Shown here: one piece after another, positions 13,877-55,515 of the stretch
How positions within the stretch are numbered: position 1 is the stretch's first letter
Layout of the letters: each line of letters begins with the position of its first letter
Assembly: GCA_001873435.1 (NCBI GenBank)
Contig: MNZB01000003.1
Coordinates: 137,789 to 201,788, forward strand
Reading direction: 5' to 3'
Source: Candidatus Pacebacteria bacterium CG2_30_36_39
GTDB taxonomy: Bacteria; Patescibacteriota; Microgenomatia; UBA1400; PJMF01
Length of the DNA stretch: 64,000 bases
Made by a program: the position numbers and the translations under genes
Notes under the pieces: model-generated
Told to the model about the DNA's origin: nothing
The model's database searches: none
What the model saw: only the letters and a program-made list of their open reading frames with translations

Positions 13877-15130
13877 TTAGCTGTTTTTATTCTTATCACT
13901 TGGCATTAAATAAATCGTGACAATGATCATTCCACCCAACCATTGGGTTAATAAATAATGATCAAGTAAAAATAGGGGTAGAACTGAAAAAGCAATTAAA
14001 CTGTGGCTGTTCCACCACTCTCTTATCTTTTTCCTTAATGAAACTAAAAACATAATTCCCAGAAAACCAGTTTCTGCTAACCAGAGCAAAAAAACATTAT
14101 GAACTGGCTGAATAAACCTAGCTATCTCATCGCTAGATTGCGGTTTTATAGCATAAAGAAAGCTATTGAGTCCTGTGCCAAAAACAGGCTGATTTTGCCA
14201 AGCTAGAACGGCCTGAGCATTAAGAAATATCCTACGTTGGAGTGACAAAAGAGGAAATTCTGTGGCCAATTTAACTAAAATTAATGGTGAAAATAAGATA
14301 GCAATAATTGTTCCAAGCTTAAATAATTTAGTGCCAACTTTTGGATATAAAAAAGACCAATTTTTAAGTACAAAGTAAAAAACTAAAACACCAATAGCTC
14401 CATAGGCTTGAGTGAGAAAAATAGTTTGACAAGTAATTGCCAATAAACCAAGTAAGAGCCAAGGTTTTTTTATTTGTTTATTATTTTTAGTTTCTGTTTC
14501 AAAAACATAAACCAAACCAACAGCCAATAGTCCAGCCAAAATATTGGGGTGAGCAGTGGTTCCATATGGAAGAATTTGTAGTTTTTCAGCTAATTGAGCT
14601 CGGCTAATATTAATGAAATTTGTCAGTTGAGATTCTCCCAGAAAACGATATGGAAGAAGATTGCTCTGATAAATAAATTGTAGATTTGCTATGAAGATTT
14701 GTAGAATTAATGCAAATAAAACTCCATATTTAAAAGCATTTAGCAATCTCGATTGTTTGACAATTAAAACCGAAAAAACAATTAACTCAAAAGCCTTAAT
14801 CAGCCAAAGAAAACTATTTAATGGTTTGGGTGTAAAAAACTGGAAGATGAAAAGTATTAAGAATAAAACACTTGTTAAGTTTAATTTGATTTTTATTTTA
14901 TGCAGTTGTCCAACTGAAAAACTTATTATTAAAACTAAAACAAATATTTCTGCTAGCCAAAACTTAGGAATCAGGTAATCACTAAAAATGCCATTAAGAT
15001 AGGCACTATTAATTTGCCATTTTAAAAATAAATTTAAGGAAGAAAAAACAACTGCAAGAATCACTAAAAGTTCTTGAATTTTTTCTTTCCAATTCATGCG
15101 TTGATTATAACTTGCCAACCAATTTGCCAT
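13877..15130 (-). CDS. O-antigen ligase (Wzy_C/WaaL) family polytopic membrane protein
   Basis: ~10 TM helices. Conserved Wzy_C-like motif GTGLNSF...HNVFLLWLAETGFLG. Confidence 0.55.
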   Translation of the reverse strand: MANWLASYNQRMNWKEKIQELLVILAVVFSSLNLFLKWQINSAYLNGIFSDYLIPKFWLAEIFVLVLIISFSVGQLHKIKIKLNLTSVLFLILFIFQFFTPKPLNSFLWLIKAFELIVFSVLIVKQSRLLNAFKYGVLFALILQIFIANLQFIYQSNLLPYRFLGESQLTNFINISRAQLAEKLQILPYGTTAHPNILAGLLAVGLVYVFETETKNNKQIKKPWLLLGLLAITCQTIFLTQAYGAIGVLVFYFVLKNWSFLYPKVGTKLFKLGTIIAILFSPLILVKLATEFPLLSLQRRIFLNAQAVLAWQNQPVFGTGLNSFLYAIKPQSSDEIARFIQPVHNVFLLWLAETGFLGIMFLVSLRKKIREWWNSHSLIAFSVLPLFLLDHYLLTQWLGGMIIVTIYLMPSDKNKNS

Positions 15131-17069
15131 TAAATTGTTTTGTTACCATTGCCACCACTTTTTCTCTCAGTGGTTTAATATTTTCATTTGCTAAGTTTTT
15201 CTTTTGATCCCAGTACTCAATGCCAAAGCTGCAGTTTTGTTGATAAACATCTTCTAGAGTAACACTTTTAATATATTGACTAAGGCCAGCTATTTCATCA
15301 ATTACTGGTCCTATTTGAGTTTCAACTGGTAAGGTAAAAGTCAAACTTTCTTTTATGCTTGAAGTCTTCGGCAGTGGTTGATAGTTGGGATGTTGTTTAA
15401 CCAATGGCAATAAAATGGCTAGCTCTATTTCTATACAAGTTAAATTATTTTCTAGCCAGATTCTACCAATCTTTATTGAGTCTACTAAAATCTCTCCATA
15501 ACTTTCCCCATTTTTTTGTTTAACAACAGGTTTAGTTAAATAGAATTTTCTCAGTAAAGCTTCGAAATCACCTTTAACTATTGCAAGTGGTTTTTGGGAT
15601 ACCAAGCTCAACAACATTGTTTCATTGGGCAATTCATTTTCTTGTGGATGATAAACATTTGCTAATTCAAATACTGATAAGTTTTCTACCTGTGGATTAT
15701 TAGCAATTGTTTCTTGAAGTGAAGGAGAAAGTGAGCGACGCAAATATACTTTATCTTCAGTTAAAGAGTTGGCTAATTGTAAGTGTCTGGTAATTTGAAA
15801 ACCACTCTGTTGAGCAATTTTTTCACTCACCATCGAGTAGGTATAAATTTCAAACCAACCTCTATCTGCTAAAAAATGCTTGATTGTTTCTTCTGCAGAA
15901 AAGTTTAGATCTTTTGGTTTAGTCAAAGGAATTTTAGTAGGCATTAGGACACTGGGTAAATTATGGTAACCATGGATGCGAGCTATTTCTTCTACAATGT
16001 CGGCTGGTATTTGTAGGTCTTTACGGAAAGTAGGAGGAACAATGTGGAAAGTATTTCTTATTACCTCCACTTTGCACTCTAGTTTCTTTAGTATTTCTAC
16101 AATTCTTTCCTTTTCAATTTCTAGACCAAGATATATATCAATTTTTTCTTTATCAAAAATAATTGGTTGTGGCTGTTCTTCTCCAGAAAAATCATCATGA
16201 ATTTTACTAGCAACAGTTGCTTCACAAAGATCTTGATAAAGTTCGATAGCTCTAACAAAAGTTGGTTCAGCTAAATGTGGATCAATCCCTTTTTCAGATA
16301 ATTGAGCAGCCACAGTTCTAATAGCATGAGACATTGAAGCAAATCTAATTTTGCTTGGTTCTAATGATTCAATCCAAAGCAAAATATTTTTTGTATCAGC
16401 ATTAACTGAGGAGTTTGCTGTGCCCTTAATTGCTGGTAGATCAATAATTTCACCTTTGGAATTTTTGAAAACAATCTCACCTCCCACGCAGCTATGCAAC
16501 TCACCATCCAAAGTTACAAAAGCCTCACCCTTCTTTGCTTCAGTAACATGAATTTCTCCACCAAGAGCCATAATTCTATCGTAATCAAAGGCATGAATAG
16601 GGTGACCAAGCTCATGAGTTACATAGTTTGTGATATCTATAGCACTGTCATGAATATTCATTTCTACTTGAGTTAAACGATCTGCCATCCATTTTGGAGT
16701 AACTGTTCTTTTAACATTTTGCAGAACTACACACAAAGTTCTTTTGCAAAATTTATGAGGATCTATGATTTTAGGTAAAGGTAATAAATTATTTTCTTTT
16801 AAATTTTTTAAGGTTAAATTTTGCTTGGCTAATTTAGCAGGAATATCAAATTGTCCTAGAATAACTGCAGCCTCGCGAGCAACACCACGAACAGACATAC
16901 TATCAACGCGGTTGGTAGTAATTTCAATGTCGTAGACTTTATCATTACCTCTTTCATAAATGCGTTCAATAGAGGGTCCGCAGAGAGAAACATATTCCTG
17001 AATTTTTGTAGGGCTTAATTCAGTTTCTAGTTGTTCAAGTAACCATTTATGAGGGATTAATATATTCAT
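15105..17069 (-). CDS. pheT: Phenylalanyl-tRNA synthetase beta subunit (shortened, 654 aa)
   Basis: Downstream of pheS. B3/B4 and B5 region motifs. The N-terminal tRNA-binding domain appears absent. Confidence 0.8.
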   Translation of the reverse strand: MNILIPHKWLLEQLETELSPTKIQEYVSLCGPSIERIYERGNDKVYDIEITTNRVDSMSVRGVAREAAVILGQFDIPAKLAKQNLTLKNLKENNLLPLPKIIDPHKFCKRTLCVVLQNVKRTVTPKWMADRLTQVEMNIHDSAIDITNYVTHELGHPIHAFDYDRIMALGGEIHVTEAKKGEAFVTLDGELHSCVGGEIVFKNSKGEIIDLPAIKGTANSSVNADTKNILLWIESLEPSKIRFASMSHAIRTVAAQLSEKGIDPHLAEPTFVRAIELYQDLCEATVASKIHDDFSGEEQPQPIIFDKEKIDIYLGLEIEKERIVEILKKLECKVEVIRNTFHIVPPTFRKDLQIPADIVEEIARIHGYHNLPSVLMPTKIPLTKPKDLNFSAEETIKHFLADRGWFEIYTYSMVSEKIAQQSGFQITRHLQLANSLTEDKVYLRRSLSPSLQETIANNPQVENLSVFELANVYHPQENELPNETMLLSLVSQKPLAIVKGDFEALLRKFYLTKPVVKQKNGESYGEILVDSIKIGRIWLENNLTCIEIELAILLPLVKQHPNYQPLPKTSSIKESLTFTLPVETQIGPVIDEIAGLSQYIKSVTLEDVYQQNCSFGIEYWDQKKNLANENIKPLREKVVAMVTKQFNGKLVGKL

Positions 17070-19708: not shown

Positions 19709-19840
19709 TCGTTTTTTAAGTTACTTATTACTATGTTTTCCCGAGAAAAAGTCCCGGAACAACGAACGTTGATTATATCATTTTCTTTGTGATTGTGTAT
19801 TAGAGTTTCATTGGGTATAATTCCCACCATTACTCGGTGA

Positions 19841-19914
19841 GAGCCCGTAGCTCAGTTGGTTAGAGCGCTTCATTGACATTGAAGAGGTCAGAGGTTCGAG
19901 TCCTCTCGGGCTCA
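19841..19914 (+). tRNA. tRNA-Val (anticodon GAC). CCA not encoded.
   Basis: Acceptor stem GAGCCCG/CGGGCTC, D-arm GCTCAGTTGGTTAGAGC, anticodon loop TTGACAT, T-arm GGTTCGAGTCC. TATAAT box ~20 nt upstream. Confidence 0.8.
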
Positions 19915-19927
19915 CCCAGATAAAAAC

Positions 19928-19951
19928 ACTCCCAATTTGGGAGTTTTTTTA
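19928..19951. terminator. Bidirectional intrinsic terminator shared by tRNA-Val and the convergent 1000-aa gene
   Basis: actccca-att-tgggagt perfect hairpin flanked by aaaaa and ttttttt. Confidence 0.7.
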
Positions 19952-22951
19952 TGCCAGTATTTCCTTTGTTTCTTTTAAATTTTCAGTTGAATCAGCCCAT
20001 TTTTTATAAGCTTGGTCTATTATCTCATCCAAAATGGGACCGAACTTCGCAATAATATTCTCTATACTAGCCTCTTCCCTACCCAGCCCAAGAAAAAGCT
20101 TATGGATATAGTCAAAATGGTTTTGACCTTGAGTAACTATTCCCTCAGTGACAAAAATCGACTTAGTTTTTCTCTTATTTTCTGGAGGATTCCAACTTAC
20201 TTTTTTATAATGTTCTAGCACTGCCAAAACTTTCTCTCTTGTTGGAATAAAACCAATGCTAACTAAATATGGATATTTACTCTTAAACTCTTCTAATTTA
20301 CTTTGTTTTTTAGAGTCCTTATTTATTTCTCCAGGATTATCATTAAGATGAACTCTTTTTTCTTTAATAGCTACTAAAAATTCTTCTGCACCTTTTTTTG
20401 CTCCATCTTCCGGATCATGATTATGAATACCTCTGTTTTGAATTATTGATATCTTCCCTTCTTTGCCACTTTCTAGTTCTAGAGTTGAAACCCTTGTCAT
20501 TTTTCCATCCACTATTTTTCTAATAGAAACTATATGGTGAGTTCCTTTGCTGCATTTATCTGAATAACCTCCCTTACCCACACAATGTGACATGGCGCTA
20601 CCCTCATCAACTAATTGTTGAGAGCTTGTGAGTGGAACAAAAAAGTATGTTGTTTTCCCCCATTCAAATCTATATTCTGGGTCGGAGAACAATGGTTTCC
20701 ATTCCCTAGTATCTACGAGATCTTTAATATTTTCTGGAAAATTATGCTGAGGCAAGTGTTCAGTTTGAGCAAACAAAGCCAGCTCACTAAAAGTTAAAGG
20801 TAAACCAAGTTGATTTAATCTCTGGTCATTGTTTAAAAACAAAAAATCCTCAGCAATAGTTTTTGCTAGTTCCAACTGCAGTTTACCAAGATCTTTGTCC
20901 ATGAACACTTCTGTTTTAAGCAATAACAATGGAGCAATAAAACTTCTACTGAATCCTTCTATCGAGTCTTTAATTAGATCAAATTTGTCGATGTCAATTT
21001 TTTCTAATTTTTCCCATAATTTTTCAAAAAAAACCTCATCTGCGTAATCACTTCCAACTTCATTATTCATTTTATTGAAAATGATTGAAAGGTTGTGTTC
21101 AGAAAAATCAATTTTTAGAGCAGAAAGAATTCCAGCAATTTTTTCTAAACAAGCTAGGGCAACCTCAATTTGTTCGGCAGAATAATTATTAAAAAGATCA
21201 TAAACTTCAACCGTTCTGCATAGTAACTCGCTAAAAAATTCATTATTTGAAAATTTTCTAATAGCCTCGACTTCTGCTTCTTTATTATTTTTTCCTTCCA
21301 ATCCTTGCAAAATAATTGTTTCAGAGGTAATCGAAGACCCAGATTTATAATCGAAGACTTTTTTACCAGTCAGAGGGTGTACTTGATTTACAATTTCCTT
21401 CCAATCATCTATTGAGAAGCTAGCTCTAATTTCAGCAAGAGCTTCTTTTTCTGGAAAACCAAACTTATCATAACTAAGTAGTAATAACTGAATTATCCAT
21501 GATGTCAGTGCTATTTCATTCTCTATGTCATCTGGAACTGGAAAATCTTGATTTTTGTATAAATATGTTAAAAAGGGTTTCCAATTTACAAATTTGTAGT
21601 TTTTATTGAGAGTATATCGATATATTTTTTGGATATTTTGCATTCTGCTTTCAGCAAAAGTCCAAACGTCAAGTCTTTCTGGTAAGGTTTTATTATTTTT
21701 TAGAAACCAATTCATTAATTTGTCATGGGTTTTTATTTCAAAAAAACTAAGATTTGATAGCAACCACTCAGTTTTTTTTGAATCTGGTCTATCAATATAG
21801 ATATCTAAAACACTTTGGGGGAATTTTCTTATTGTAGTTAAGTTTAGCTCTTTTATTTCTTCATCATCCCAGGTACTAAAGATTTTTCTTAATATTTGAT
21901 TTTTATTTATTCCTTTGACAATGGCAAATGCTTCAGCAAATTGTTTTCTTCTTTCTGAATTAGGGTTTTTTGATAATAGTTTCCAGATATATTTTCCATT
22001 TATTTCTGGAGGAAAAGCGTGTTGTGCAGAGAAAATAAAGTCCAATCTATCATTTTCAAATAAAAAATCAGCAGTTTCTTTTGTTAAACCATGAAACTTT
22101 GGAATTACGTCTTTTAATACAAACCATGGAAAATCATTATTCTCAACCATTTTTTGGATTAGAAAATTATGATCAAGGGTTGGATATAAATCTAGATTTT
22201 TTAAAATTGCCCAGGCTTTTTCTTTATCAGTCAATAAATTTATTAGATCATTATGAGAGAGATCTGGAAATTTTTCTGGATGTTTTGCCATTAGAAAAGG
22301 ATTTTCCTTAACCATTTCGATCGGAAAATTTGCTGAATCTGTTGCAAACCAATCCCAATAGAGTTCAAAAACATGAGGATAAGAAGACATTACTGAGACT
22401 GCTTCTTCATCGCTAAAATATGGAGGGTTTTTTGGAATTTCCTCTGACTTGGTTTTCTTTACAAATTTGGCAATTACTTCTATATCAACTTGAGAAAAAC
22501 TTTCTTTATATTCAGAATTTACAAATTTATCAAATGTTAAAGGATTTTTTTCTGCTAAAACCAACAAATACCTTTTTGACAAGGCAGTTTTATTGTTTTT
22601 TAAATAGACCTCCAGTAGATCTGCTGTTGCATCGGCTGGACTAGTTTCCCAAGCTCCAGACGGATCAGCTGCTTGATAAATCGTATTATGTTTATCTGAA
22701 ATTTCATAAAGCAGTTCTTCAGAGATGAGCTCTGGTTCTGTGGTGGCAAGTGATTTTGCTCTAACAATAGCACTCTCTTGACCAGAATCTATGGCTGTCA
22801 AAATGTATTGAATTTTTATCTCTGATGGAAAGGCTTTTACTTGCTCATCATAGTCTTTTGGTTTGTCATACCAATTACGGATTAACTCATCGAGTTGATC
22901 CATTTTTCTTTTATGAGAATTATCCAAGGTAGTTGCTATATTTTCTTGCAT
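19949..22951 (-). CDS. 1000-aa orphan protein. Largely alpha-helical N-terminal ~800 aa of unknown function. C-terminal ~150 aa resembles the uncharacterised PcfJ-like family (EG-x2-M-x-HCVG...Y...G..I.S.R...Q.RG..N).
   Basis: Uninterrupted ORF. Motif EGSAMSHCVGKGGYSDKCSKGTHHIVSIRK...IQNRGIHN. Very AT-rich codon usage relative to flanking housekeeping genes. Confidence 0.45.
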   Translation of the reverse strand: MQENIATTLDNSHKRKMDQLDELIRNWYDKPKDYDEQVKAFPSEIKIQYILTAIDSGQESAIVRAKSLATTEPELISEELLYEISDKHNTIYQAADPSGAWETSPADATADLLEVYLKNNKTALSKRYLLVLAEKNPLTFDKFVNSEYKESFSQVDIEVIAKFVKKTKSEEIPKNPPYFSDEEAVSVMSSYPHVFELYWDWFATDSANFPIEMVKENPFLMAKHPEKFPDLSHNDLINLLTDKEKAWAILKNLDLYPTLDHNFLIQKMVENNDFPWFVLKDVIPKFHGLTKETADFLFENDRLDFIFSAQHAFPPEINGKYIWKLLSKNPNSERRKQFAEAFAIVKGINKNQILRKIFSTWDDEEIKELNLTTIRKFPQSVLDIYIDRPDSKKTEWLLSNLSFFEIKTHDKLMNWFLKNNKTLPERLDVWTFAESRMQNIQKIYRYTLNKNYKFVNWKPFLTYLYKNQDFPVPDDIENEIALTSWIIQLLLLSYDKFGFPEKEALAEIRASFSIDDWKEIVNQVHPLTGKKVFDYKSGSSITSETIILQGLEGKNNKEAEVEAIRKFSNNEFFSELLCRTVEVYDLFNNYSAEQIEVALACLEKIAGILSALKIDFSEHNLSIIFNKMNNEVGSDYADEVFFEKLWEKLEKIDIDKFDLIKDSIEGFSRSFIAPLLLLKTEVFMDKDLGKLQLELAKTIAEDFLFLNNDQRLNQLGLPLTFSELALFAQTEHLPQHNFPENIKDLVDTREWKPLFSDPEYRFEWGKTTYFFVPLTSSQQLVDEGSAMSHCVGKGGYSDKCSKGTHHIVSIRKIVDGKMTRVSTLELESGKEGKISIIQNRGIHNHDPEDGAKKGAEEFLVAIKEKRVHLNDNPGEINKDSKKQSKLEEFKSKYPYLVSIGFIPTREKVLAVLEHYKKVSWNPPENKRKTKSIFVTEGIVTQGQNHFDYIHKLFLGLGREEASIENIIAKFGPILDEIIDQAYKKWADSTENLKETKEILA

Positions 22952-23008
22952 GAAATGACATGCTCAAGGCTAGCAGAAAACTAATTGAAAAGGAACAATT
23001 ATTAATAT

Positions 23009-23674
23009 TTAACTACCACTAAAAGCAGTGGATTTTTCATGGTGCATAGTGTCTTGGACAAACTTAGTTTCTTGACTATCAACTACCATTCCCCCGCCTC
23101 GACGTTGAGACATTTTCTTTTTTCTAGAATTCATTTGTTTGGCCCAGGTACGAGCGCTTTTAACTTTTTGTCTCAATAACATGATAAAACTACGAAGTTT
23201 GGCAAAGAAGTTTTTATAGTAACTACCCTCTTGCCCTGGTTGAGTAATTTGAGTCATTAATGTAACTTCTGCTTCTTTTTGCAAAGAACCAAGGTCTGAC
23301 ATTAGTAATGCAATTTCTTTTTTAAGTTGGTTAATTTCTTTTAGCTCCCTCTCTTGGCGAGCGGCATAAATCTCATGGTTATCAACTGGGTTGATTTGAT
23401 CATGAAGTTTTTTACGCAAAGCATCTCGTTCAGCTTGTTTTTTTAACTCAGCTTGTTGTTGGGCTAATAGATCATTTTGACTGGAATTTTTGCCTTTAGG
23501 CTCAAGATTGCCACCGGTTTTAGCTAGAGCCTCACTAAAAAGTTGGCTTTCATTTTTACCAGTTTCTTGTCTGGCTTGATGAGCGTGAGATTCAGTTTCC
23601 ACCAAAGCTTGAGCAAACGGATTAATTCCGGATTGCTTTGCAGCTGGTTTTTTTGTTTGCCCAAGAGTTTGCAT
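23009..23674 (-). CDS. 221-aa Gln/Lys/Glu-rich coiled-coil protein, unknown function. Co-transcribed upstream partner of the 1000-aa gene.
   Basis: ORF with heptad-like charged repeats (LLAQQQAELKKQAERDALRKKL...). Basic C-terminus (RKKKMSQRRGGG). Confidence 0.4.
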   Translation of the reverse strand: MQTLGQTKKPAAKQSGINPFAQALVETESHAHQARQETGKNESQLFSEALAKTGGNLEPKGKNSSQNDLLAQQQAELKKQAERDALRKKLHDQINPVDNHEIYAARQERELKEINQLKKEIALLMSDLGSLQKEAEVTLMTQITQPGQEGSYYKNFFAKLRSFIMLLRQKVKSARTWAKQMNSRKKKMSQRRGGGMVVDSQETKFVQDTMHHEKSTAFSGS

Positions 23675-23687
23675 ATATAATAGCTTT

Positions 23688-23716
23688 AATTATAGGACTA
23701 TACCAGGCTATTGTCA
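23688..23716 (-). promoter_or_regulatory. Perfect consensus sigma-70 promoter (TTGACA - 17 nt - TATAAT) on the minus strand. -10 ends 13 nt before the ATG of the 221-aa gene, giving a leaderless or near-leaderless transcript.
   Basis: Plus strand attata (23688-23693) ... tgtcaa (23711-23716), i.e. rc TTGACA-N17-TATAAT. No SD between -10 and ATG. Confidence 0.55.
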
Positions 23717-23759
23717 AGAAATTTCTTATTAGGCAGAGCTAGGCTCATTAATGATGATT

Positions 23760-24719
23760 CTACGCAAGACTGAGCAAATGGTCTACTACCTTCTGCTTGA
23801 GAAGATTGGTTTCCAAATGACCAAGATAATGCTTGTCCTTTTTGACTTGCTCTCTCACCTTGAGGTCGGTGATGGTTTCAAAATATTTATCTTTATCTTG
23901 ATCAGTAACTGCTAGTTTTTGATCTTTAGCGATAGCACCAAGTAATAAATCTAGTTGAAGTCTACTGAGAGTAGAAACAGCTAATTCTTGAGAAAGAGTA
24001 TCCATAGTCATATTGCGACGGGTTAGATAATCATCAACTGTCATATTGAGCTGTTTGAGCTGATCAACAATGTGTTCAAACTCATGCTGAGTTTCATGTT
24101 TGAGTAATAACTCAGGTACTCCTGGCTTAAGTTGACCAACTAATTCGCGGAAAATATGTTGAAGCTTAGTTTCTTTTTCTTGTTCTGCAGTTGGAGCTGA
24201 CACTTCTTTAGTATCTTTATCTTTGTTTTCATTAGCTTTTTTCTTAGCTTCAGCCAATGCTTTCTCAGCATTTTTAGCACCTGCCTTAACATGTTTTTCA
24301 TAACCCTTAACAGTAACTTCTGGCAATTCAGCAAAATGTGCTTTAATTACCCAATCTTTGCCAATCTCAGTACTGGTGATAGAGAATTCTGGATGAGTAA
24401 TTGGTTTTTTCTTGGCAGCTTCCATGGTTTCTTGATAAGCTGCTGGAACCAATTCGTCTAAAACACGTTCAACTATTTGATTTTGACCAAGTTGTTCTTC
24501 TGCTACTTTGGCTGGAACATTGCCTTTTCTAAAGCCTGGAACAGAGACTTTTTTAGCTAAAGAAGCCAAAATACTTGAATATTTTTTGTTAACATCATCT
24601 TTTTTTAAGGTAATTGTAATAGTGCTATTTGGCAATAAAAGTGAGGTTCCTTCTTCTTTTTTAGGAGCAGTAGTAGCCTTAGTAACCTTTTTTTGTTCTT
24701 GAGTAGTTTTTTTTGTCAT
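23760..24719 (-). CDS. tig: Trigger factor (shortened, 319 aa; N-terminal ribosome-binding domain present)
   Basis: PGFRKGNVPAKV (GFRxGxxP TF signature). K/T-rich N-terminal extension. Shorter than typical ~430 aa. Confidence 0.7.
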   Translation of the reverse strand: MTKKTTQEQKKVTKATTAPKKEEGTSLLLPNSTITITLKKDDVNKKYSSILASLAKKVSVPGFRKGNVPAKVAEEQLGQNQIVERVLDELVPAAYQETMEAAKKKPITHPEFSITSTEIGKDWVIKAHFAELPEVTVKGYEKHVKAGAKNAEKALAEAKKKANENKDKDTKEVSAPTAEQEKETKLQHIFRELVGQLKPGVPELLLKHETQHEFEHIVDQLKQLNMTVDDYLTRRNMTMDTLSQELAVSTLSRLQLDLLLGAIAKDQKLAVTDQDKDKYFETITDLKVREQVKKDKHYLGHLETNLLKQKVVDHLLSLA

Positions 24720-25715: not shown

Positions 25716-26762
25716 TTAAAGCAAGTTTATGCTTTCAATTAAGCGGTGAGAATAACCCCACTCATTATCATACCAACTAATCACCTTAACCATATTGCCG
25801 CCAACAACTTGGGTTAAAAGTAAATCTACAATTGAAGATTCACTGCGGCCCACAATATCTGAGGAAACAATTGGGTCGTTGGTAACAGCTAAAATTCCTT
25901 GCCATTCTGGTTTTTGAGAGGCTTCAGTTAAAACCTTATTAACCTCTTCTACAGTAGTTTCTTTTTTAGTGATAAAAGTGATATCAGACAAAGAACCAGT
26001 TGCAGTTGGTACGCGGATGGCTAAGCCATCAAAGATGCCAATAAATTCTGGTACAACTTTACCAACAGCCTTAGCTGCTCCAGTTGATGTAGGAACAATG
26101 TTCTCGGCAGCACCACGAGCTCGACGCAAATCTTTGTGTGAGTTATCCTGCAGATTTTGATCATCAGTGTAAGCATGAATGGTGGTTAACATGGCTTTTT
26201 CCACTCCAAAATGCTGAGAGATAATCTTGGCTACTGGTGCAGTACAGTTGGTAGTGCAGGAAGCATTGGAGTGAATAATTTCAGGTTTGTCTGTTCCTCC
26301 TACTCCAATAACTCCAGTGCTAATTCCCTCACCTTTCCCTGGTGCTGAAAGTAAAACTTTTTTGGCTCCGCCCTGAAGATGGAGACTAGCTTTTTCTTTA
26401 GTGTTAAAAACTCCAGTTGATTCCACCACAACTTCTACACCATTTTTACCCCAAGGAATTTTATCTGGGCTACGTTGAGCAGTGATTAAGATTTCATATT
26501 GAGCAATTTTTAAAGTGCCCAAAACTGGATCTTCATCTGTTACCTTATCTCTTGTTTGATGCTCGGTATAGGTAAGTTCTTCTGAGAACATTCCATAATG
26601 AGAATCATATTTGAGCAAATGTACCCAACCAGCAATGTCCATTGATCCTGAGGTATTAATGACTTTTAATTCAAGAGTATCGCGATGAGCTTGCCACCAC
26701 ACCCTAAAAGCGTTTCTACCTATACGACCAAAACCATTAATACCAAAGACTTTTTTAGTCAT
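25716..26762 (-). CDS. gap: Glyceraldehyde-3-phosphate dehydrogenase
   Basis: MTKKVFGINGFGRIGRNAFR NAD-binding N-terminus, catalytic SNASCTTNC. Internal start chosen; the track start at 26852 would overlap pyrH. Confidence 0.9.
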   Translation of the reverse strand: MTKKVFGINGFGRIGRNAFRVWWQAHRDTLELKVINTSGSMDIAGWVHLLKYDSHYGMFSEELTYTEHQTRDKVTDEDPVLGTLKIAQYEILITAQRSPDKIPWGKNGVEVVVESTGVFNTKEKASLHLQGGAKKVLLSAPGKGEGISTGVIGVGGTDKPEIIHSNASCTTNCTAPVAKIISQHFGVEKAMLTTIHAYTDDQNLQDNSHKDLRRARGAAENIVPTSTGAAKAVGKVVPEFIGIFDGLAIRVPTATGSLSDITFITKKETTVEEVNKVLTEASQKPEWQGILAVTNDPIVSSDIVGRSESSIVDLLLTQVVGGNMVKVISWYDNEWGYSHRLIESINLL

Positions 26763-26793
26763 GGGAGTAACCTTTCTTTGTTGTCGCCAATTA

Positions 26794-27534
26794 TTAAACC
26801 AATTTTGTAGTGACATCGTTACTGACATAGGTGCCGATGTTTTCACCATCAACAGCTTTTTCTAGATTATCACCTTCGAAGAGTTTGAAGATCATAACTG
26901 CCAAATTGTTTTCTTGACTCATGGCTAAAGCTGAGGTGTCCATTACTTGAACATCATCCATAGAAATTGCATCTTTTAAAGAAAGAGTTTGGTAGCGCTT
27001 GGCATCTGGGAATTTCATTGGATCTTTTTCATATACACCATTAACTTTGGTGGCTTTCATGAATACATCACAATTGAGTTCTAAGGCGTGGAGTGATGCA
27101 CCAGTGTCAGTGGTTACGTAAGGTACGCCTGTTCCTGCACTAAGAATAACAACATGACCTTTTTCCATATGGCGAATTGCTTTGCGACGAATAAAAGTTT
27201 CAGCAACTGAAGGCATATCAAGGGCTGACTGTAAGCGGGTGGAAACATTTACTTTTTCCAAAGCATCTTGAAGAGCCAAACCATTCATAATGGTTGCTAA
27301 CATTCCCATATAGTCTGCTGTAGCACGATCAATTCCATTTTTACTTCCAGCAATACCGCGGAAAATGTTGCCACCACCAATTACAACTGCAATTTGTACT
27401 CCTTTATCATGAATAGATTTTATTTTTTGAGCAACCTCTAGAGCGGCTTGTGGATCAATGCCATATTCTCTGTTGCCAATCATAGATTCTCCACCTACCT
27501 TGAGGAGAATGCGTTTGAAGCGTGGGTTTTTCAT
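26794..27534 (-). CDS. pyrH: UMP kinase
   Basis: KRILLKVGGE...VVIGGGNIFRG amino-acid kinase family motifs typical of PyrH. Confidence 0.9.
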   Translation of the reverse strand: MKNPRFKRILLKVGGESMIGNREYGIDPQAALEVAQKIKSIHDKGVQIAVVIGGGNIFRGIAGSKNGIDRATADYMGMLATIMNGLALQDALEKVNVSTRLQSALDMPSVAETFIRRKAIRHMEKGHVVILSAGTGVPYVTTDTGASLHALELNCDVFMKATKVNGVYEKDPMKFPDAKRYQTLSLKDAISMDDVQVMDTSALAMSQENNLAVMIFKLFEGDNLEKAVDGENIGTYVSNDVTTKLV

Positions 27535-30625: not shown

Positions 30626-31324
30626 ATGAGAAAAATTATTTTTGGTAATTGGAAAGCTAATAAATCCTTAACTCAAGCCAGAGAATGGCTTGAGATTTTT
30701 AATCAAGAATTAGCTGAAGATGCTCAGTTAGAAGTTGAAGGAGTAATAGCTCCTGCTTTTCCACTCTTATCTGAAGTAAAAGAAAATTTGCCTAAGCAAA
30801 TTAGTTTGGGTTTGCAAGATATTAGCGCTTATCCAGCTGGTTCATATACTGGTGGTGTTTCGGTGCAAAATATTGCCGGTTTTGGGGTGAAATATGCTTT
30901 AATTGCTCATTCAGAACGTCGCAAATACTTTACTGAAACATCCACCACCGCTGCTCAAAAAGTCACCCAATTACTTTCTATTGGTATTACTCCAATTGTT
31001 TGTGTTGAAAGAGAAACCATTGATGAGCAGATTGCTAGAATTTCTGTGGAAGAATTATCTAAATGTATTATTGCTTATGAGCCTTCTGCCTCAATTGGAT
31101 CTGGAAATAATGCTTCATTAAGTGATGTAACTGATTTTAAAGAAAAGGTTAAAAGACTTTGTGGAGATGTGCCATATCTTTATGGTGGAAGTGTTAATGA
31201 GCAATCAATTGCTGAGTATCTTTTTGTCACTGATGGAGTTATTATTGGCACTGCCTCACTTGAGGCAAAACAATTTGTATCAGTTTTACGAGCTGCCCAA
31301 GGGAAAACACCTATTGGCTCATGA
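30626..31324 (+). CDS. tpiA: Triosephosphate isomerase
   Basis: GNWKAN, IAHSERR, AYEP motifs. Confidence 0.85.
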   Translation: MRKIIFGNWKANKSLTQAREWLEIFNQELAEDAQLEVEGVIAPAFPLLSEVKENLPKQISLGLQDISAYPAGSYTGGVSVQNIAGFGVKYALIAHSERRKYFTETSTTAAQKVTQLLSIGITPIVCVERETIDEQIARISVEELSKCIIAYEPSASIGSGNNASLSDVTDFKEKVKRLCGDVPYLYGGSVNEQSIAEYLFVTDGVIIGTASLEAKQFVSVLRAAQGKTPIGS

Positions 31325-32583
31325 AACGATTATTTGAGATACCTTATAGCTTTTCACTATTAGCGATTCTGTTTTTTTCCTTGTTGGTAAGATTTTTTCA
31401 ACTTGGTCAACCTGCAGATTATGTTTTTGATGAGCGTTATCATCTTCCAGCTGTCAGATTGATTGCTGAAAATGACCCTAGAGCTTTTGAGTGGTGGCAT
31501 CCTCCAATTTATGGTGTTTCAAACCATGATTGGCTTCATCCTCCTTTGGCTAAATATATTCAAGCCACTGTTTATAAATTAGGTCATGGCTCAGTAGAGA
31601 GCTGGCGTTTGGGATCAGTTATTTTTGGTCTAGGGGGAATAGTTTTAACCTATGTATTAGGTAGTTTGGTTTTTAATAACAGATTGGTAGGAATTTTATC
31701 TGCTTTAATTTTGAGTTTAGATGGTTTGTGGCTAGTTCAATCTAGAGTGGGAATGAATGATGTTTTTGTTACTGTTTGGTTGCTACTGGCTGCTATTGTT
31801 TATGTAAAGCTGAAGAAAAAAACCAATAGTTCTTTGTTGCTGTTGGTCGGAATTTTTCTTGGTATTGGGATAGCTACCAAGTGGACAGCCATGTTTTGGT
31901 TGGTGGGAATTCTTAGCTATGAACTAGTTAATGTTTGGAGAAAAAAAACTTGGCGCTTGATTCCTTGGCAAGTTTTTTGTTTATTAGCTGTGCCTATTTT
32001 TATCTACTTATTAAGTTATTTGCCTATGTTTATTCAGGGTAAAGATTTTAGTTATTTTTTAGAATTACATAAAAATATTTGGTGGTATCAGACTCATCGT
32101 GAATCCTTGCATTTGTTTCAATCTATTCCAGCCCAATGGATAAATAATACTGGTGTTGTTTGGTATTGGCACGGCTCTAATTATGAAAATATTTATGCTT
32201 TTAATAATCCATTATTGGTTGTTCTAGAAAACATTGCTTTGTTGGTAACCATTTATGCAATTGCAAGAAAAAATGTTAATCATCAATATTTGTCTTTGCT
32301 ATTGTTTTTTTACGCCATGAGTTTTGTGCTATGGGTTTTTAGTCCACGGATACTTTTTTATTATCACTACACTCCAGCTCTGCCATTTTTGGCAATAATT
32401 TTGGGATATTGGTTGAAGAAAATTTATTTTTCGAATGTTGAAGTTAAAAAATCTTTATTATTCTTATTTACAATTGTTTGCCTGGTTTTTGTTTTCTGGC
32501 TTTATTATCCAGCTTGGATTGGATTTCCAGTTTCCAAAGATTTACAAGACACAGTATACTATTTCCTGCCTGGACAGATATAA
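31321..32583 (+). CDS. GT-C fold glycosyltransferase, PMT/ArnT-like (GT39/GT83-type) polytopic membrane protein
   Basis: N-terminal loop DE motif (VFDERYH), >10 TM helices. Confidence 0.55.
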   Translation: MKRLFEIPYSFSLLAILFFSLLVRFFQLGQPADYVFDERYHLPAVRLIAENDPRAFEWWHPPIYGVSNHDWLHPPLAKYIQATVYKLGHGSVESWRLGSVIFGLGGIVLTYVLGSLVFNNRLVGILSALILSLDGLWLVQSRVGMNDVFVTVWLLLAAIVYVKLKKKTNSSLLLLVGIFLGIGIATKWTAMFWLVGILSYELVNVWRKKTWRLIPWQVFCLLAVPIFIYLLSYLPMFIQGKDFSYFLELHKNIWWYQTHRESLHLFQSIPAQWINNTGVVWYWHGSNYENIYAFNNPLLVVLENIALLVTIYAIARKNVNHQYLSLLLFFYAMSFVLWVFSPRILFYYHYTPALPFLAIILGYWLKKIYFSNVEVKKSLLFLFTIVCLVFVFWLYYPAWIGFPVSKDLQDTVYYFLPGQI

Positions 32584-32584
32584 A

Positions 32585-33301
32585 ATGAAAAAACTATCTT
32601 CTCTATCTATTTTTTTTCCTTGTTTTAATGAAGAAAGAAATATTCCTTTTTTTATTGATGAAGCGCTTAATTTTCTTCCCAAAATTGCTGATAAGTTTGA
32701 GATTATTATCATAAATGATGGGAGTGTGGATGATACAAGATTAGTTACTGACAAACTAACCAAGGAAAATCCACTTATTAAGGTAATTCATCATTCAGAA
32801 AACTTGGGCTATGGTGCTGCTTTGAGAACTGGTTTTTCAGTAGCCAAATATGAGTGGGTGTTTTTTACCGATGGTGATTTGCAATTTAAATTGTCTCAAC
32901 TTAAAAAATTTATTCCTTATACTGATAAAAACCACGTGATAATTGGTTATCGCAAAAACAGAGCGGATGGCAAAGCTAGGGTTTTTAATGCTTGGTTATT
33001 TAAGCTTTATATTGATTTGCTTTTTAGAGTTGGGGTTAAAGATATTGACTGTGCATTTAAGTTATTTCATAGGAAAACTTTGCAATCTTTGCATTTAGAA
33101 TCTACTGGAGCTTTTACTAGCTCTGAGGTTCTTTATAAGTTAAAGAAAAAAGGTGAAGTTTTTGTTCAGCTGCCAGTTGATCATAAAAAAAGAAAATATG
33201 GTTCTCCAACTGGAAATAATTTGAAGGTAATTATTAAAGCTGGAATTGAGGCTTTGAGTTTATATTTAAAAATTAAGCTTGGAAGTTTAGTTCAAAAATG
33301 A
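32585..33301 (+). CDS. GT2 family glycosyltransferase, polyprenol-phosphate sugar synthase (DPM1/GtrB-like)
   Basis: LSIFFPCFNEE...IIIINDGSVDDT...DGDLQF (GT-A DxD). Start at 32585 preferred over the overlapping track start. Confidence 0.7.
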   Translation: MKKLSSLSIFFPCFNEERNIPFFIDEALNFLPKIADKFEIIIINDGSVDDTRLVTDKLTKENPLIKVIHHSENLGYGAALRTGFSVAKYEWVFFTDGDLQFKLSQLKKFIPYTDKNHVIIGYRKNRADGKARVFNAWLFKLYIDLLFRVGVKDIDCAFKLFHRKTLQSLHLESTGAFTSSEVLYKLKKKGEVFVQLPVDHKKRKYGSPTGNNLKVIIKAGIEALSLYLKIKLGSLVQK

Positions 33302-34557
33302 AAAAAATAGCAATTATCGGAGCTGGTTTTGCAGGTTTGGCTGCAGCATGGGAAGCTGTTAAATCAGGTTACAAAGTTGATATTTTTGAAGCTGAAAAAC
33401 TACCAGGTGGATTGGCTTCTGGATTAAAAAATGATAAATGGTTGTGGTCTTTGGAGCATCATTATCATCATATTTTTCAAACAGATAAAGATATTCTCAA
33501 TTTATTGTCAGAAATGAATTTGAATAAAAAAATATTTTTTAAGACAGTAAACACTAGATCATATTTTGATAAAAGAGCTTGGTCAGTTGATAGTCCCATT
33601 AATTTGCTTCGCTTCTCTCCCCTATCATTTTTTGATCGTTTACGAGTTGGTTTTGTTATTGCGTTTTTAAAATTTTTACCCAATGGTCGTTGGTTAGAAA
33701 AATACTCTGCTAAAGATTTTTTAATTAAGACTATGGGGAAAGCTGGTTGGGAAATTTTATGGCAACCCTTATTTGATGGCAAATTTGGCAAGCAAGCTGG
33801 AAAGATAAACATGGCTTGGTTTTGGGCTAGAATCAGTTCTCGCTCACAGCAATTGGGATATTATCAGGGTGGATTTTTATGTTTAGCAGAAGATATGGTT
33901 GAAGTTTTAAAATCAAAAGGTGTTAAGTTTCATTTTTCTGCTCCAGTATTAAAAATAAAAAGCAGTAACAAAAAAATAAATGTAATTTTGGAAAAAAATA
34001 AAAGTCTTCCTTTTGATAATGTTTTAATAACCCTTCCATCTCCAGTGGCTAGCAAGTTGGTTGATTTACCAAAGAATAATTTAAAAGGATTATCAGCAAG
34101 AACTTTAGTATTAGAGTTAGATAAAGAATTTTTTATTGATCAGACATATTGGCTGAGTATTCATGAGAAAAACTGGCCTTTTTTGGCTGTGGTTGAGCAT
34201 ACCAATCTTACTAACAAAAAAAATTATGGTAACAAAACTATTATTTATGTTGGTAAGTATTTAGATAAAAAAGAATCTTTTTATAAACTTAGTAAAGAAG
34301 AGATTCTTAAAATATATCAGCCATTTTTAGAAAAACTTTCTCCTGGATTTAATAAATATCTAAAGCGTAGCTGGATTTTTGATGCAGACTTTGCCCAACC
34401 ATTGGTTTTTACCAACCATTCTAAAGAGGTGCCATTAATTAAAACTGATATGAATGGAGTTTATTGGGTCAGCATGCAACATGTTTACCCTTGGGATCGT
34501 GGCATAAATTATGCGGTTAAATTTGGTTTAGAAGCTGTTAAATATTTTAATGATTAA
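33298..34557 (+). CDS. FAD/NAD(P)-binding oxidoreductase (amine-oxidase/CrtI/HemY-like family)
   Basis: N-terminal Rossmann GxGxxG (IAIIGAGFAGLAAA), EAE..PGG motif. ~420 aa. Confidence 0.55.
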   Translation: MKKIAIIGAGFAGLAAAWEAVKSGYKVDIFEAEKLPGGLASGLKNDKWLWSLEHHYHHIFQTDKDILNLLSEMNLNKKIFFKTVNTRSYFDKRAWSVDSPINLLRFSPLSFFDRLRVGFVIAFLKFLPNGRWLEKYSAKDFLIKTMGKAGWEILWQPLFDGKFGKQAGKINMAWFWARISSRSQQLGYYQGGFLCLAEDMVEVLKSKGVKFHFSAPVLKIKSSNKKINVILEKNKSLPFDNVLITLPSPVASKLVDLPKNNLKGLSARTLVLELDKEFFIDQTYWLSIHEKNWPFLAVVEHTNLTNKKNYGNKTIIYVGKYLDKKESFYKLSKEEILKIYQPFLEKLSPGFNKYLKRSWIFDADFAQPLVFTNHSKEVPLIKTDMNGVYWVSMQHVYPWDRGINYAVKFGLEAVKYFND

Positions 34558-36247
34558 ATATATGAAAAAAATATTTCAAAATTTGATTAATTTTTTTCAG
34601 CAAAAAAGCTCTAAAAAATATTTTGTAATTTTTGGAATTTTTTTTCTAATATGTTTTATTTTTTTTCAATCAACATTTTCTTATCATGAACAAAAATTTT
34701 TTATTAAAGCAAAATTGTGGAGCGATTTTGCTGCCCACCTTCCACTCATTAGGTCTTTTAGTCTTGGAGATAATTGGCCAGTGGAATATCCTTTTTTTGC
34801 TGGACTTAAGATTAACTATCATTTTCTGTTTTATGCAGTCGTTGGTGGTTTGGAAAGAATTGGTTTTAGAATTGATTACGCACTAAATTTTCTAAGTGCT
34901 TTGGGTGGCGCTGGTTTATTGACTAGTATTGTTTGGCTTGGTGAGTACTATTTTAGTTTTAGCGCTGGTTTATTGGCAGTTTTTTTATTTTTATTTAATG
35001 GTTCGTTAGTTTTTATTCAATTTTTTAAAGAAAATATTTTTACTAATTTTGAAAATTTTTATCAAACTTTAGTTACTCAAAGAACATTTGTTAGTTTTGG
35101 TCCTTGGAATGGAGATTTAATAAGTGCATTTTGGAATTTAAATATTTTTACCAATCAACGTCATTTGGGCTTGGGTATTAGTATTTTATTGTTTTTAATT
35201 GGTTGGTTTGAATTATTTTTTAAAGAGAAAAATAAGATTTATCAGAGAGATTATTTATTAATAGCTTTTTTAATAGTTTTACTGCCCCTATTTCATCAGG
35301 CCTCTTTTGCTGTTTTAGTAATTTATTTATTAATTGGTTTTTTCTCTAATCCAAAATTTTATTTAAAAAAACATTTATTATTTTTTATTATTACGGGATT
35401 TATTTCTTTTAAATCATATTTAATGTTTAAAAATGGTTTTATACCTATTTTAGACATTGGTTTTTTGGCTTTAGAAAAAAACTTACCAAGTATTTTTAAT
35501 TATTGTTTACAAAACTTTGGACTTTACCTATTTTTTATTCCGCTATTTTTATTTTTAGTATTTTTCAAAAAAGATTATTTTAAATTTCGTAAGATTTATT
35601 TAACTGGTTTATTTATTTTTATTATTTCTTTTATTTTTCGTTTTTCTACAGACATGATTAATAATCATAAATTTATTACTATTTTTCTGATTATTATGAA
35701 TTTAGGCGTTGCTGGCTTATTAGTTAAAACTTATCAAACACAAGTTTTTTTGAAGCAAATTGGTGTTTCTTTAATAGTCTTTTTCTTAACCTTTTCTGGC
35801 TTAATAGACTTATTTCCAATTCTCAATGATGGCTTGTATGTGCAAAAAGATTATCAGCGATCTGAGTTTGGTAGATGGGTAGTCACAATTGATCCACATT
35901 CGGTTTTTTTGGTAAATGAATATTTATATAATCCAATTTCTTTAGCTGGTAGAAAACTCTATCTAGATTATGGTTATTTTTCTTGGTCAATGGGTTATCC
36001 AGATCATGATCGTCGAAAAAAACAGGACCAGATTTTTAGTAAAGATATTGCTAAAGATGACTGGTGCAACCTACTAAGCTCTGAGGGTATTGATTATTTG
36101 GCATTAGACCAAAATCAAGGTGATTTTATGAGTAAGTACAGAGTTGATCAGTCTAGTTTTATTTATTTTTCTAAACCATTGATTTTTGATAAAGCAGAAA
36201 ATCAATCGAGCACATATGTTTATGATGTAAAGGAAATATGTCAATAA
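34550..36247 (+). CDS. Polytopic Phe-rich membrane protein (possible GT-C glycosyltransferase), function unknown
   Basis: ~14 predicted TM helices with a soluble C-terminal domain. Embedded in the glycosyltransferase cluster. Confidence 0.35.
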   Translation: MIKYMKKIFQNLINFFQQKSSKKYFVIFGIFFLICFIFFQSTFSYHEQKFFIKAKLWSDFAAHLPLIRSFSLGDNWPVEYPFFAGLKINYHFLFYAVVGGLERIGFRIDYALNFLSALGGAGLLTSIVWLGEYYFSFSAGLLAVFLFLFNGSLVFIQFFKENIFTNFENFYQTLVTQRTFVSFGPWNGDLISAFWNLNIFTNQRHLGLGISILLFLIGWFELFFKEKNKIYQRDYLLIAFLIVLLPLFHQASFAVLVIYLLIGFFSNPKFYLKKHLLFFIITGFISFKSYLMFKNGFIPILDIGFLALEKNLPSIFNYCLQNFGLYLFFIPLFLFLVFFKKDYFKFRKIYLTGLFIFIISFIFRFSTDMINNHKFITIFLIIMNLGVAGLLVKTYQTQVFLKQIGVSLIVFFLTFSGLIDLFPILNDGLYVQKDYQRSEFGRWVVTIDPHSVFLVNEYLYNPISLAGRKLYLDYGYFSWSMGYPDHDRRKKQDQIFSKDIAKDDWCNLLSSEGIDYLALDQNQGDFMSKYRVDQSSFIYFSKPLIFDKAENQSSTYVYDVKEICQ

Positions 36248-39611: not shown

Positions 39612-39688
39612 TATAACGGAGTCTTTTTTTCCTAGTTACTGGGTTTTCAATCTCTCTTTTTACCTGATATTTTGGTATATTCGAGCGT

Positions 39689-41788: not shown

Positions 41789-41790
41789 TT

Positions 41791-49593: not shown

Positions 49594-49611
49594 TTTTCAG
49601 GGAATAAAAAG

Positions 49612-49685
49612 TGGGTGTACTACGAATCGAACGTAGGACCTCTGTCTTATCAGGACAGCGCTCTAACCATCTGAGCTATACACCC
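49612..49685 (-). tRNA. tRNA-Ile (anticodon GAU). CCA not encoded.
   Basis: rc gives GGGTGTATAGCTCAGATGGTTAGAGCGCTGTCCTGATAAGACAG...GGTTCGATTCGTAGTACACCCA. Anticodon loop CTGATAA. Confidence 0.8.
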
Positions 49686-50070: not shown

Positions 50071-50245
50071 GTCATCTGCTCTTTTTAAGGGCAGTGAGAC
50101 AGATGTTAACATCAGAATAAATTCTGAGCTAAACACGGTGGTGAAAAATGGCCTAGATATGGTGATCATAGGACTTGTTATTTCGAGAACATTACTGTTC
50201 TCGGGAGAAAGGAGGTCGTGATATCTCCTACCCGTTCTCCTTAGA

Positions 50246-51770
<1,525 letters not shown>

Positions 51771-52132
51771 TAAAAATTTATTTTTAAGTTTGAAACTGAT
51801 CTTTTTTTCTTCGTTATCTAAAAGATTTATTGTTTCTGGTTGATAATTTACCCCTGCTGGGATAAATCATCGATTTGGAATTAACGGATTCTTTTTTTAA
51901 AAAAAATCCATCAATGTAACATATTTCACCACCATGTTCATATCAGAATATGAATCCATGGTGTAAATTCTGTCTTAAGTCTATTAATTTGTTAATGTTC
52001 AACTTCTTTTTCACCGAAAAAAAGAAACAATCCCCGCTGGGGGCCGTCTCTTCTTTCCCGCGATTTGTGAATTCTATGTCATGTGACACGAATTGTGAAG
52101 TGGGAGATATTGTATCAAGTAATCATGAGATG

Positions 52133-54213: not shown

Positions 54214-54230
54214 GTTTTTAACTTAGCTTT

Positions 54231-55511: not shown

Positions 55512-55515
55512 AAGC

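Follow-up and report, generated by a model that had tools for sequence, protein, structure and literature searches.

How a 1000-residue protein came to be encoded, on its own, among the housekeeping genes of a Patescibacteria chromosome, and what such a protein might do, are the questions raised by a stretch of 64,000 nucleotides from Candidatus Pacebacteria bacterium CG2_30_36_39 (contig MNZB01000003.1, positions 137,789 to 201,788 of the forward strand; hereafter the window, numbered from its first nucleotide). The gene is a single intact open reading frame (ORF) on the minus strand (positions 19949-22951), with an ATG start and 1000 codons followed by a stop codon, and it is as uninterrupted over its 3 kb as an initial annotation, made from the DNA letters, had described. 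The chance of a stop-free stretch of 1000 codons, computed from the base composition of the window, is ~10^-30.6. The same gene and its neighbours are also found on a 6.5-kb ENA metagenome contig (k141_599416) at 99.985% nucleotide identity, and the protein encoded there (P0001) is identical. The explanation that we favour, and to which we give about an even chance, is that the gene is an accessory, lineage-specific single-gene insertion coding for a solenoid scaffold joined to an extended PcfJ enzyme module, with a role in inter-genome conflict or in the manipulation of a host or partner.

The family of the protein is given by its C-terminal part, where the initial annotation had placed a PcfJ-like motif within the last ~150 residues. 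A hidden Markov model search bore out the domain: Pfam PcfJ (PF14284) matched residues 761-847 (positions 20411-20671, minus strand) with an E-value of 3.1e-13 and 50.2 bits against a gathering cutoff of 25. The motifs that had been quoted are present (EGSAMSHCVG at residue 783, HHIVSIRK at 805 and IQNRGIHN at 837; the HC motif of the core lies at nucleotides 20552-20605, minus strand), but ~150 further residues follow the core. The PF14284 alignment covers only profile positions 58-138 of 147, the upstream part being replaced by a divergent helical extension that is common to the subfamily relatives. By tblastn, the protein showed 29-37% identity over ~100 residues to annotated 'PcfJ domain-containing proteins' in phages and plasmids, namely Listeria and Streptococcus phages and plasmids of Bosea, sphingomonads, Clostridium and Alicyclobacillus. 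Three PHROG families with function-less annotation match the PcfJ-core stretch via their C-termini. NCBIfam gave no match for the protein, PADLOC gave no defence-protein match at E<=0.1, and a PDB sequence search with the protein returned nothing significant.

To see how far the homology reaches beyond the Pfam domain, we searched 1.84 billion cluster representatives exhaustively with phmmer. This gave 378 matches at E<=1e-3, with only the protein itself below E=1e-30, and the matches form two classes: PcfJ-type proteins, which match query residues ~640-950, and proteins with 28-residue repeats, which match residues ~217-305. Homology to the PcfJ-type relatives (P0002, P0004, P0006, P0009 and others) spans more than the Pfam match and defines an extended PcfJ-subfamily module (residues 640-950; positions 20102-21034, minus strand), in which the PcfJ core is flanked by a helical N-extension and a helical C-extension. 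The latter carries a conserved 'GE..K ... IGF.PT.E.V..A..HY' stretch. The best PcfJ-type match, P0002 (1003 residues), is 30% identical over residues 660-951 and has the domain at an equal position. The remaining residues 951-1000 (positions 19952-20101, minus strand) form a helical C-terminal tail that aligned to nothing in the subfamily alignment described below and for which no homologue was detected. Word-indexed homologue searches, which were of hardly any use for this protein, returned the protein itself only when queried with the full sequence, nothing (itself included) with a C-terminal fragment, and five proteins with an alignment profile; a scan of genome contigs with the protein found no relative. 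For an alignment-based scan of viral contigs the subfamily alignment was too divergent; a degenerate DNA pattern for EG..M.HCVG matched 120 viral contigs, only 3 of which were true PcfJ, core-only at ~33% identity, and a viral donor was not identified.

We then asked which residues of the module are under constraint, using an alignment (A1) of 25 extended-subfamily sequences, i.e. the query and 24 other members. L780, E783, H789, C790, G792, Y796, T823 and Q838 are invariant in A1, and P674, H732, W751, L754, V791, C800 and N844 are nearly so. E783, H789, C790, G792, Y796, T823, Q838 and N844 are also kept in comparison with four classical phage and plasmid PcfJ proteins. Two conserved residues, a C and a G, are named in the Pfam description of PcfJ. 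This pattern bears on whether the module is an enzyme at all, since it could instead be a non-catalytic binding domain, for example a small His/Cys metal-stabilised fold that binds DNA or protein, which would make the whole protein an adaptor or a structural component. H789, C790 and the nearly invariant C800 could serve as metal ligands, no enzyme family was matched by sequence, and the partnership of classical PcfJ with the small PcfK protein hints at complex formation. However, of the classical proteins only that of Sphingobium keeps C800, those of the phages and the Clostridium plasmid having lost or never had it, and a Cys/His metal site is therefore not a family feature; moreover, the invariant E, H, C, Y, T, Q and N resemble an active site more than a structural metal site. 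We regard a binding domain as a rather unlikely alternative.

The fold on which these residues are predicted to lie was modelled with AlphaFold2 (AF2) for residues 640-1000, using alignment A1. The model reached a predicted local distance difference test (pLDDT) score of 76.4 and a predicted template modelling (pTM) score of 0.70, with the core above 90 pLDDT. The core has the order beta-beta-alpha-alpha-beta-beta-beta(-alpha) and is flanked by helices. This order of strands and helices is that of the GNAT N-terminal arm plus beta4-alpha3. When placed by secondary-structure order, the invariant residues fall in and around the alpha1-alpha2 loop and strands beta3/beta4, and Q838-x-x-G841 is located at the position of GNAT motif A.

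Upstream of the module lies an all-helical N-terminal region (residues 1-639; positions 21035-22951, minus strand) that is predicted to be an alpha-solenoid scaffold. The initial annotation had seen no motif in the ~800 residues preceding the PcfJ motif, a view that did not survive: residues ~120-410 match 28-residue helical repeats, while residues 640-760 lie in the conserved PcfJ-subfamily module. The internal repeats were not visible by self-BLAST and emerged only through matches to other proteins. Specifically, 21 large repeat proteins matched residues ~217-305 by phmmer in 2-9 stretches each (E-values to 1.5e-24 in the fetched set and 2.3e-15 in the whole library), and the consensus of the matching 28-residue repeat family reads GLDHxEIAxKLIxxGxGxxVAxNLxKF. 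In a MAFFT alignment, query residues ~120-410 (positions 21722-22594, minus strand) align in register with the tandem 28-residue repeats, giving ~ten degenerate two-helix repeats of 28-30 residues, of which the part at residues 217-305 (nucleotides 22037-22303, minus strand) matches best. The structure model of the N-terminus is all-helical, with solenoid matches. Residues ~40-640 would form an alpha-solenoid that includes the ~ten degenerate repeats.

The repeat family itself is large (P0007, P0010, P0018, P0019, P0023 and others) and is not covered by Pfam, which gave no significant repeat family for the 28-residue repeat proteins tested. The C-terminal regions of these proteins vary, with a weak, sub-threshold DUF3626 match in P0018 and no Pfam match in P0007.

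How unusual is it to find a long repeat region joined to PcfJ? The family had been taken to be normally 265-420 residues long, but this range is outdated: the 128 PcfJ-type relatives have a median length of 620 residues, 20 of them reach at least 800 and 5 at least 1000 residues. Because P0003, P0004 and P0009 join ankyrin repeats to PcfJ, the combination of a repeat scaffold and PcfJ is a recurrent architecture, as judged from sequence. The novel architecture claimed in the initial annotation was thus overstated, several relatives combining an N-terminal ankyrin region with PcfJ; what is new here is the type of repeat and the particular sequence, the PcfJ family itself being known.

Next to the protein, its position was informative. 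A scan for IF3 with one genome per species gave 19 loci, whose informative titles name Patescibacteria, Paceibacterota and Woesebacteria. The closest locus, L006, comes from a 'Candidatus Paceibacterota' metagenome-assembled genome (MAG; the name maps to phylum Minisyncoccota), in which IF3 is 77% identical and synteny is conserved. The premise that the gene belongs to a genome-reduced symbiont is therefore reasonable as far as placement in the Patescibacteria goes, symbiosis being assumed from the phylum. Gene order was examined in 10 related Patescibacteria loci, and the backbone tig - DUF5660 - [slot] - tRNA-Val - infC - rplT recurs in them, with the exceptions that L010 and L011 have pheS/pheT displaced, that L016 lacks them, and that DUF5660 is missing from L010. 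On its left in this order the slot is bounded by the DUF5660 gene (23009-23674, minus strand), which lies upstream of the ORF and is conserved in the lineage whether the slot is filled or empty. The right-hand boundary is the 3' end of tRNA-Val(GAC) (19841-19916, plus strand), which is convergent with the ORF and 32 bp from its stop codon.

The content of the slot varies strongly between these loci. It is empty in L008, L011, L013 and L017, holds SAM-dependent (S-adenosylmethionine-dependent) methyltransferases in L007 and L020 and unknown ORFs in L016 and L018, while L010 has a larger insertion there that includes an M23/SLT protein. The slot of the closest relative, L006, comprises 1046 bp with a 151-residue Fic/DOC ORF (L006 8866-9321; 25.4 bits in Pfam, where the cutoff is 24) and, after it, ~400 bp that are non-coding. 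The repeat-plus-PcfJ gene was absent from the slot in all 10 loci, with no orthologue in conserved synteny, and tblastn of the 1000-residue protein against all 19 loci gave no trace (best E 0.77). Blastn homology with L006 (~71% identity) stops at position 22977, 32 bp past the DUF5660 stop codon, and resumes at 19915 inside the tRNA, which defines 19916-22976 as window-specific DNA; this DNA holds the ORF alone, abuts the tRNA-Val 3' end and has clean breakpoints. The stretch between the DUF5660 gene and tRNA-Val is thus a gene-swap hotspot, occupied here by a lineage-specific gene. Adjacency to a tRNA gene had been read as a sign of acquisition, but tRNA-Val lies beside infC in nearly all related loci and this adjacency is ancestral in the lineage.

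These observations can be joined into the explanation that we favour. A single gene, drawn from a pool shared with mobile elements, would have been inserted into a recombination-prone slot between the DUF5660 gene and the tRNA-Val 3' end of a Patescibacteria chromosome. The N-terminal alpha-solenoid would act as a binding or targeting scaffold that recruits a macromolecular target, and the extended PcfJ module (~640-950) would be the working part, with a His-Cys-centred active site on a half-GNAT-like fold. Since every family-invariant residue is kept on the GNAT-arm-like core of the model, the module probably has enzymatic activity, and a Cys/His-dependent group transfer or hydrolysis on the solenoid-recruited target would be the most likely reaction. 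The likely role would be in inter-genome conflict or host/partner manipulation, not housekeeping, because classical PcfJ genes lie in early regions of phages and accessory regions of conjugative plasmids, as a rule directly behind a PcfK (AcrIIA9-family) gene, and because ankyrin-fused paralogue arrays occur beside integrases.

The genomic contexts of the relatives are as follows. A PcfK-family gene (PF14058) lies directly upstream of PcfJ in Listeria phage B054 and Streptococcus phage Javan367, and in Clostridium botulinum pCBG the PcfJ gene is downstream of a gene annotated as AcrIIA9 family, which has no PcfK Pfam match itself. AcrIIA9 has been reported to carry a PcfK domain (PMC6739104). 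Overlapping or adjacent PcfK-like and PcfJ genes were seen in a Listeria phage (L002 3511-5291) and a Streptococcus prophage (L003 3553-5288), with a similar pair in a C. botulinum plasmid (L027 3738-6306). The conservation of this gene pair in phage, prophage and plasmid suggests that the PcfK-like protein and PcfJ act together. The PcfJ copy of a Sphingobium plasmid lies among DNA-methylase, DUF3768, DUF736 and VapC genes, and the context of P0004 includes TrwC, Tn3, integrase and ParDE. P0009 is one of four tandem PcfJ paralogues (795, 694, 767 and 842 residues; two with ankyrin repeats recorded) beside integrase and PolA genes on a JGI metagenome contig (L029 1-9529).

If the protein manipulates another cell, it might do so from outside its own, as an effector that a presumed episymbiont exports to the inside or the surface of its host cell, with the solenoid binding a host target. 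Repeats combined with a small enzymatic domain, like the ankyrin-fused paralogue arrays of relatives, are an effector-typical architecture, the phylum is one of host-dependent cells, and type IV pilus genes occur within the window. Against export, the sequence has no apparent signal peptide or secretion motif, none of the adjacent genes belongs to a secretion system, and the host-dependent lifestyle is itself assumed from the phylum. An exported effector therefore has a low probability in our view. On reading the 1000-residue sequence no transmembrane segment was evident either, and as there is no evident signal peptide or membrane segment the protein is probably cytoplasmic.

Several observations weigh against the favoured explanation, and some of them concern the structural models. 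Confidence in the N-terminal model is low beyond residue ~330. The resemblance of the core to GNAT is partial, with ~90-100 residues aligning at ~10% identity, and the beta5-alpha4-beta6 arm, which completes the acyl-CoA site, is not predicted in the AF2 model, where only helices follow alpha3. No Acetyltransf/GNAT family matched in Pfam or NCBIfam at E<=0.1, and Foldseek returned nothing significant. Furthermore, no experimental or functional study of any PcfJ protein was found in the searchable literature, where searches were swamped by C. elegans pCFJ plasmids. Given the absence of the beta5-alpha4-beta6 arm, and since alpha3 is where classical PcfJ proteins stop, we describe the modelled core as resembling GNAT in its N-terminal half without assigning it to GNAT.

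The same comparison decides how seriously to take the idea that the PcfJ core is a GNAT-derived, acyl-CoA-dependent acyltransferase, which would acetylate or acylate a target, either a protein or nucleic-acid-associated, that the solenoid presents. Relative to GNAT motif A (Q/R-x-x-G-x-G/A), the query stretch Q838-N-R-G841-I-H843 agrees in Q-x-x-G but not in the last G/A, and the family consensus is Q.xG..N. This mismatch at the last motif position, the absence of the pantetheine-cleft arm from the model, the end point of the classical proteins, the missing GNAT Pfam match and the low identity together make an acyltransferase unlikely. To our knowledge, an invariant His-Cys dyad in the alpha1-alpha2 loop, as in PcfJ, is not a GNAT feature. 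A bolder and rather improbable proposal is that the PcfJ core represents a previously unrecognised 'half-GNAT' enzyme class, whose invariant His-Cys dyad would modify a macromolecular target covalently; in Patescibacteria, such modules on interchangeable solenoids would be swapped at the tRNA-adjacent hotspot as conflict or host-interaction effectors.

The remaining points against the favoured explanation concern the origin of the gene. The initial annotation had called it visibly more AT-rich than its neighbours and compositionally distinct. The ORF has a GC content of 0.319, which is indeed lower than that of the immediate neighbour genes (0.36-0.38), but it is no outlier among the 47 window ORFs (mean 0.355, standard deviation (SD) 0.037; z = -0.97). 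The same holds for GC at third codon positions (GC3; 0.224 against a mean of 0.260, SD 0.045; z = -0.81), and the synonymous-codon distance from the other window genes is among the lowest (z = -1.07). The lower GC arises mostly at the first two codon positions and reflects the abundance of K, E, I, N and F in the protein. The composition of the ORF thus carries no sign of foreign origin, GC3 and codon usage looking native, and with all three measures within ~1 SD of the window genes we rejected the idea of a compositional island.

Nor were the usual marks of mobility seen. There is no second copy of the tRNA-Val 3' end that could be an att repeat, even at 2-3 mismatches; no integrase, transposase, reverse transcriptase or other mobile-element gene occurs among the ORFs of the 64-kb window; and neither the protein nor its neighbours gave a PcfK (PF14058) match. 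A genomic island formed by an integrase at att sites was rejected, there being no integrase and one tRNA-Val 3' end copy only. In addition, P0002 and P0006, which are the closest of the long homologues, have housekeeping genes around them and are not part of mobile elements, and with 10 loci compared, loss in the relatives keeps some probability. Horizontal origin, as initially proposed, is supported by the synteny, the gene being lineage-specific, but not by composition or mobility genes. Given the native composition and the lack of integrase, att repeat and PcfK partner, an acquisition, if horizontal, would be either old or from a donor of similar composition.

These same facts would fit an ancestral, vertically inherited gene that diverges fast and has repeatedly been lost in relatives: codon usage and GC3 look native, mobility genes and att repeats are lacking, and the distant homologues P0002 and P0006 are chromosomal. 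However, the slot is empty in four relatives and holds unrelated genes in others, including the closest one, no remnants were found in any locus, and P0002 sits at a different chromosomal position, so that we consider vertical inheritance very unlikely. A further idea came from a survey of diversity-generating retroelements (DGRs), which mentions a PcfJ-like motif in some target proteins of the candidate phyla radiation (CPR) (PMC5758913). That the ORF is such a DGR target deserves next to no credence and was rejected: no pair of template and variable repeats involving the ORF was found in the 64 kb, and there is no reverse transcriptase among the window ORFs.

Much stronger deviations in composition exist elsewhere in the window. 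Its most AT-rich block (31321-42579, GC 0.26-0.31) deviates far more than the PcfJ gene. This envelope glycosylation cluster encodes two PMT-type GT-C enzymes, GT2, GT4, a flavin amine oxidase and DUF2298, and two more of its ORFs matched nothing in Pfam.

As to expression, a bidirectional terminator-like hairpin (ACTCCCAAxTTGGGAGT plus a T-run; 19928-19944) lies between the ORF stop codon and tRNA-Val, and no minus-strand terminator was found between the DUF5660 gene and the ORF. Upstream of the DUF5660 gene is a promoter-like site that is a perfect sigma-70 consensus match, and a consensus match only (TTGACA-17-TATAAT; 23689-23717, minus strand). Judging from these elements, the DUF5660 gene and the ORF are probably co-transcribed, likely from this predicted promoter.

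The genes around the hotspot are infC, rpmI, rplT, pheS and a short pheT downstream of the ORF, and DUF5660, trigger factor and GAPDH upstream. The rest of the 64 kb is housekeeping, with NusB, RNase III, PilM/O, RecG, TyrRS, a class A penicillin-binding protein, FemAB, UvrABCD, Lon, 16S rRNA, MnmA and others. Trigger factor (23760-24719) has 319 residues and lacks the peptidyl-prolyl isomerase (PPIase) domain, while PheT (15105-17069) has 654 residues, its match starting at about position 149 of the bacterial model with the N-terminal domain missing; both domain losses are consistent with a streamlined genome. The ~130-nucleotide leader between tRNA-Val and infC (19709-19840, minus strand) is by eye much better conserved with L006 9804-9985 than the ~71%-identical surrounding coding DNA. 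It contains a promoter-like TACACA-16-TATAAT with a TG extension (19799-19772) and has no Rfam match, and may be a lineage-specific autoregulatory leader of the IF3/L20 type. The mechanically called GAPDH ORF, with a TTG start, overlaps the upstream ORF of the amino-acid-kinase family by 59 nucleotides (25716-26852 and 26794-27534). Its true start is probably further downstream, as Pfam similarity sets in at residue ~37 and the orthologue in L006 has 349 residues. Further away, 16S rRNA (50245-51773, minus strand) is followed by tRNA-Ile (49611-49685) and then by MFS and EamA transporter genes, and 23S rRNA was not found in the window, so that the rRNA operon appears split. Three genes at 53254-56448 (minus strand), encoding a 7TM_transglut membrane protein, a sugar-transfer-associated ATP-grasp enzyme and a MATCAP-like peptidase, look like a peptide-ligation or modification cassette.

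What does the gene contribute? In itself, it is one more uncharacterised accessory protein and not a new kind of system; it is worth somewhat more as a way into the biochemistry of PcfJ and into the flux of genes through hotspots in Patescibacteria. The PcfJ domain is widespread in plasmids, phages and integrative elements, and no solved structure was matched to it by sequence. Testable gains are a compact invariant set (E, HC, Y, T, Q, N) on a confidently modelled core, the architecture of a repeat scaffold plus PcfJ, and the PcfK(AcrIIA9)-PcfJ pair in mobile elements. If the half-GNAT proposal were true, this PcfK-free protein would offer a tractable, partner-free start for biochemical work on a family that has genetic links to the anti-CRISPR family AcrIIA9. 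For the Patescibacteria, the stretch from the DUF5660 gene to tRNA-Val is a concrete gene-swap hotspot at which unrelated accessory genes interchange (Fic/DOC, methyltransferases and the PcfJ protein), and it is useful for understanding how tiny genomes acquire accessory functions.

The protein can lastly be compared with known systems. GNAT N-acyltransferases (PDB 3pzj, 4lua, 1s7f) and MYST histone acetyltransferases resemble its PcfJ core at ~10% identity only, and the core is without their beta5-alpha4-beta6 arm. In the 28-residue repeat proteins (P0007, P0010, P0018, P0019 and others) the repeats are near-perfect, whereas the query copies are highly degenerate, and the C-terminal domains of those proteins differ and include no PcfJ domain, whereas the query carries one. 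Classical PcfJ proteins (Listeria phage B054 gp62, Streptococcus phage Javan367 gene 0022 and C. botulinum pCBG WP_040109976) have the core motif L..EG.A[LM].HCVG...Y ... T.E ... Q.RG..N in common with the query, including all invariant residues, and share its predicted secondary structure of the core. However, they are 450-650 residues long and end right after the core, while the query has 1000 residues with a ~150-residue extension past it. They also lie in phage and plasmid accessory regions downstream of a PcfK/AcrIIA9-family gene, in contrast to the query, which stands alone in a housekeeping chromosomal region without a PcfK partner. The contexts of the extended subfamily are again unlike that of the query, with TrwC/Tn3/integrase genes around P0004, while P0009 belongs to a paralogue array by an integrase, and P0002 and P0006 have other housekeeping surroundings. 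Nevertheless, it is with this extended metagenomic subfamily (P0002 with 1003 residues, P0006 with 717 residues, P0003, P0004 and P0009) that the query has the whole ~300-residue module in common, at 25-32% identity, together with the helical N-extension, the 'GET..SK ... IGF.PT.E' C-extension and a large N-terminal repeat or helical region; this region is unrelated in sequence, consisting of ankyrin or other sequence in the relatives and of 28-residue LEKF-type repeats in the query.

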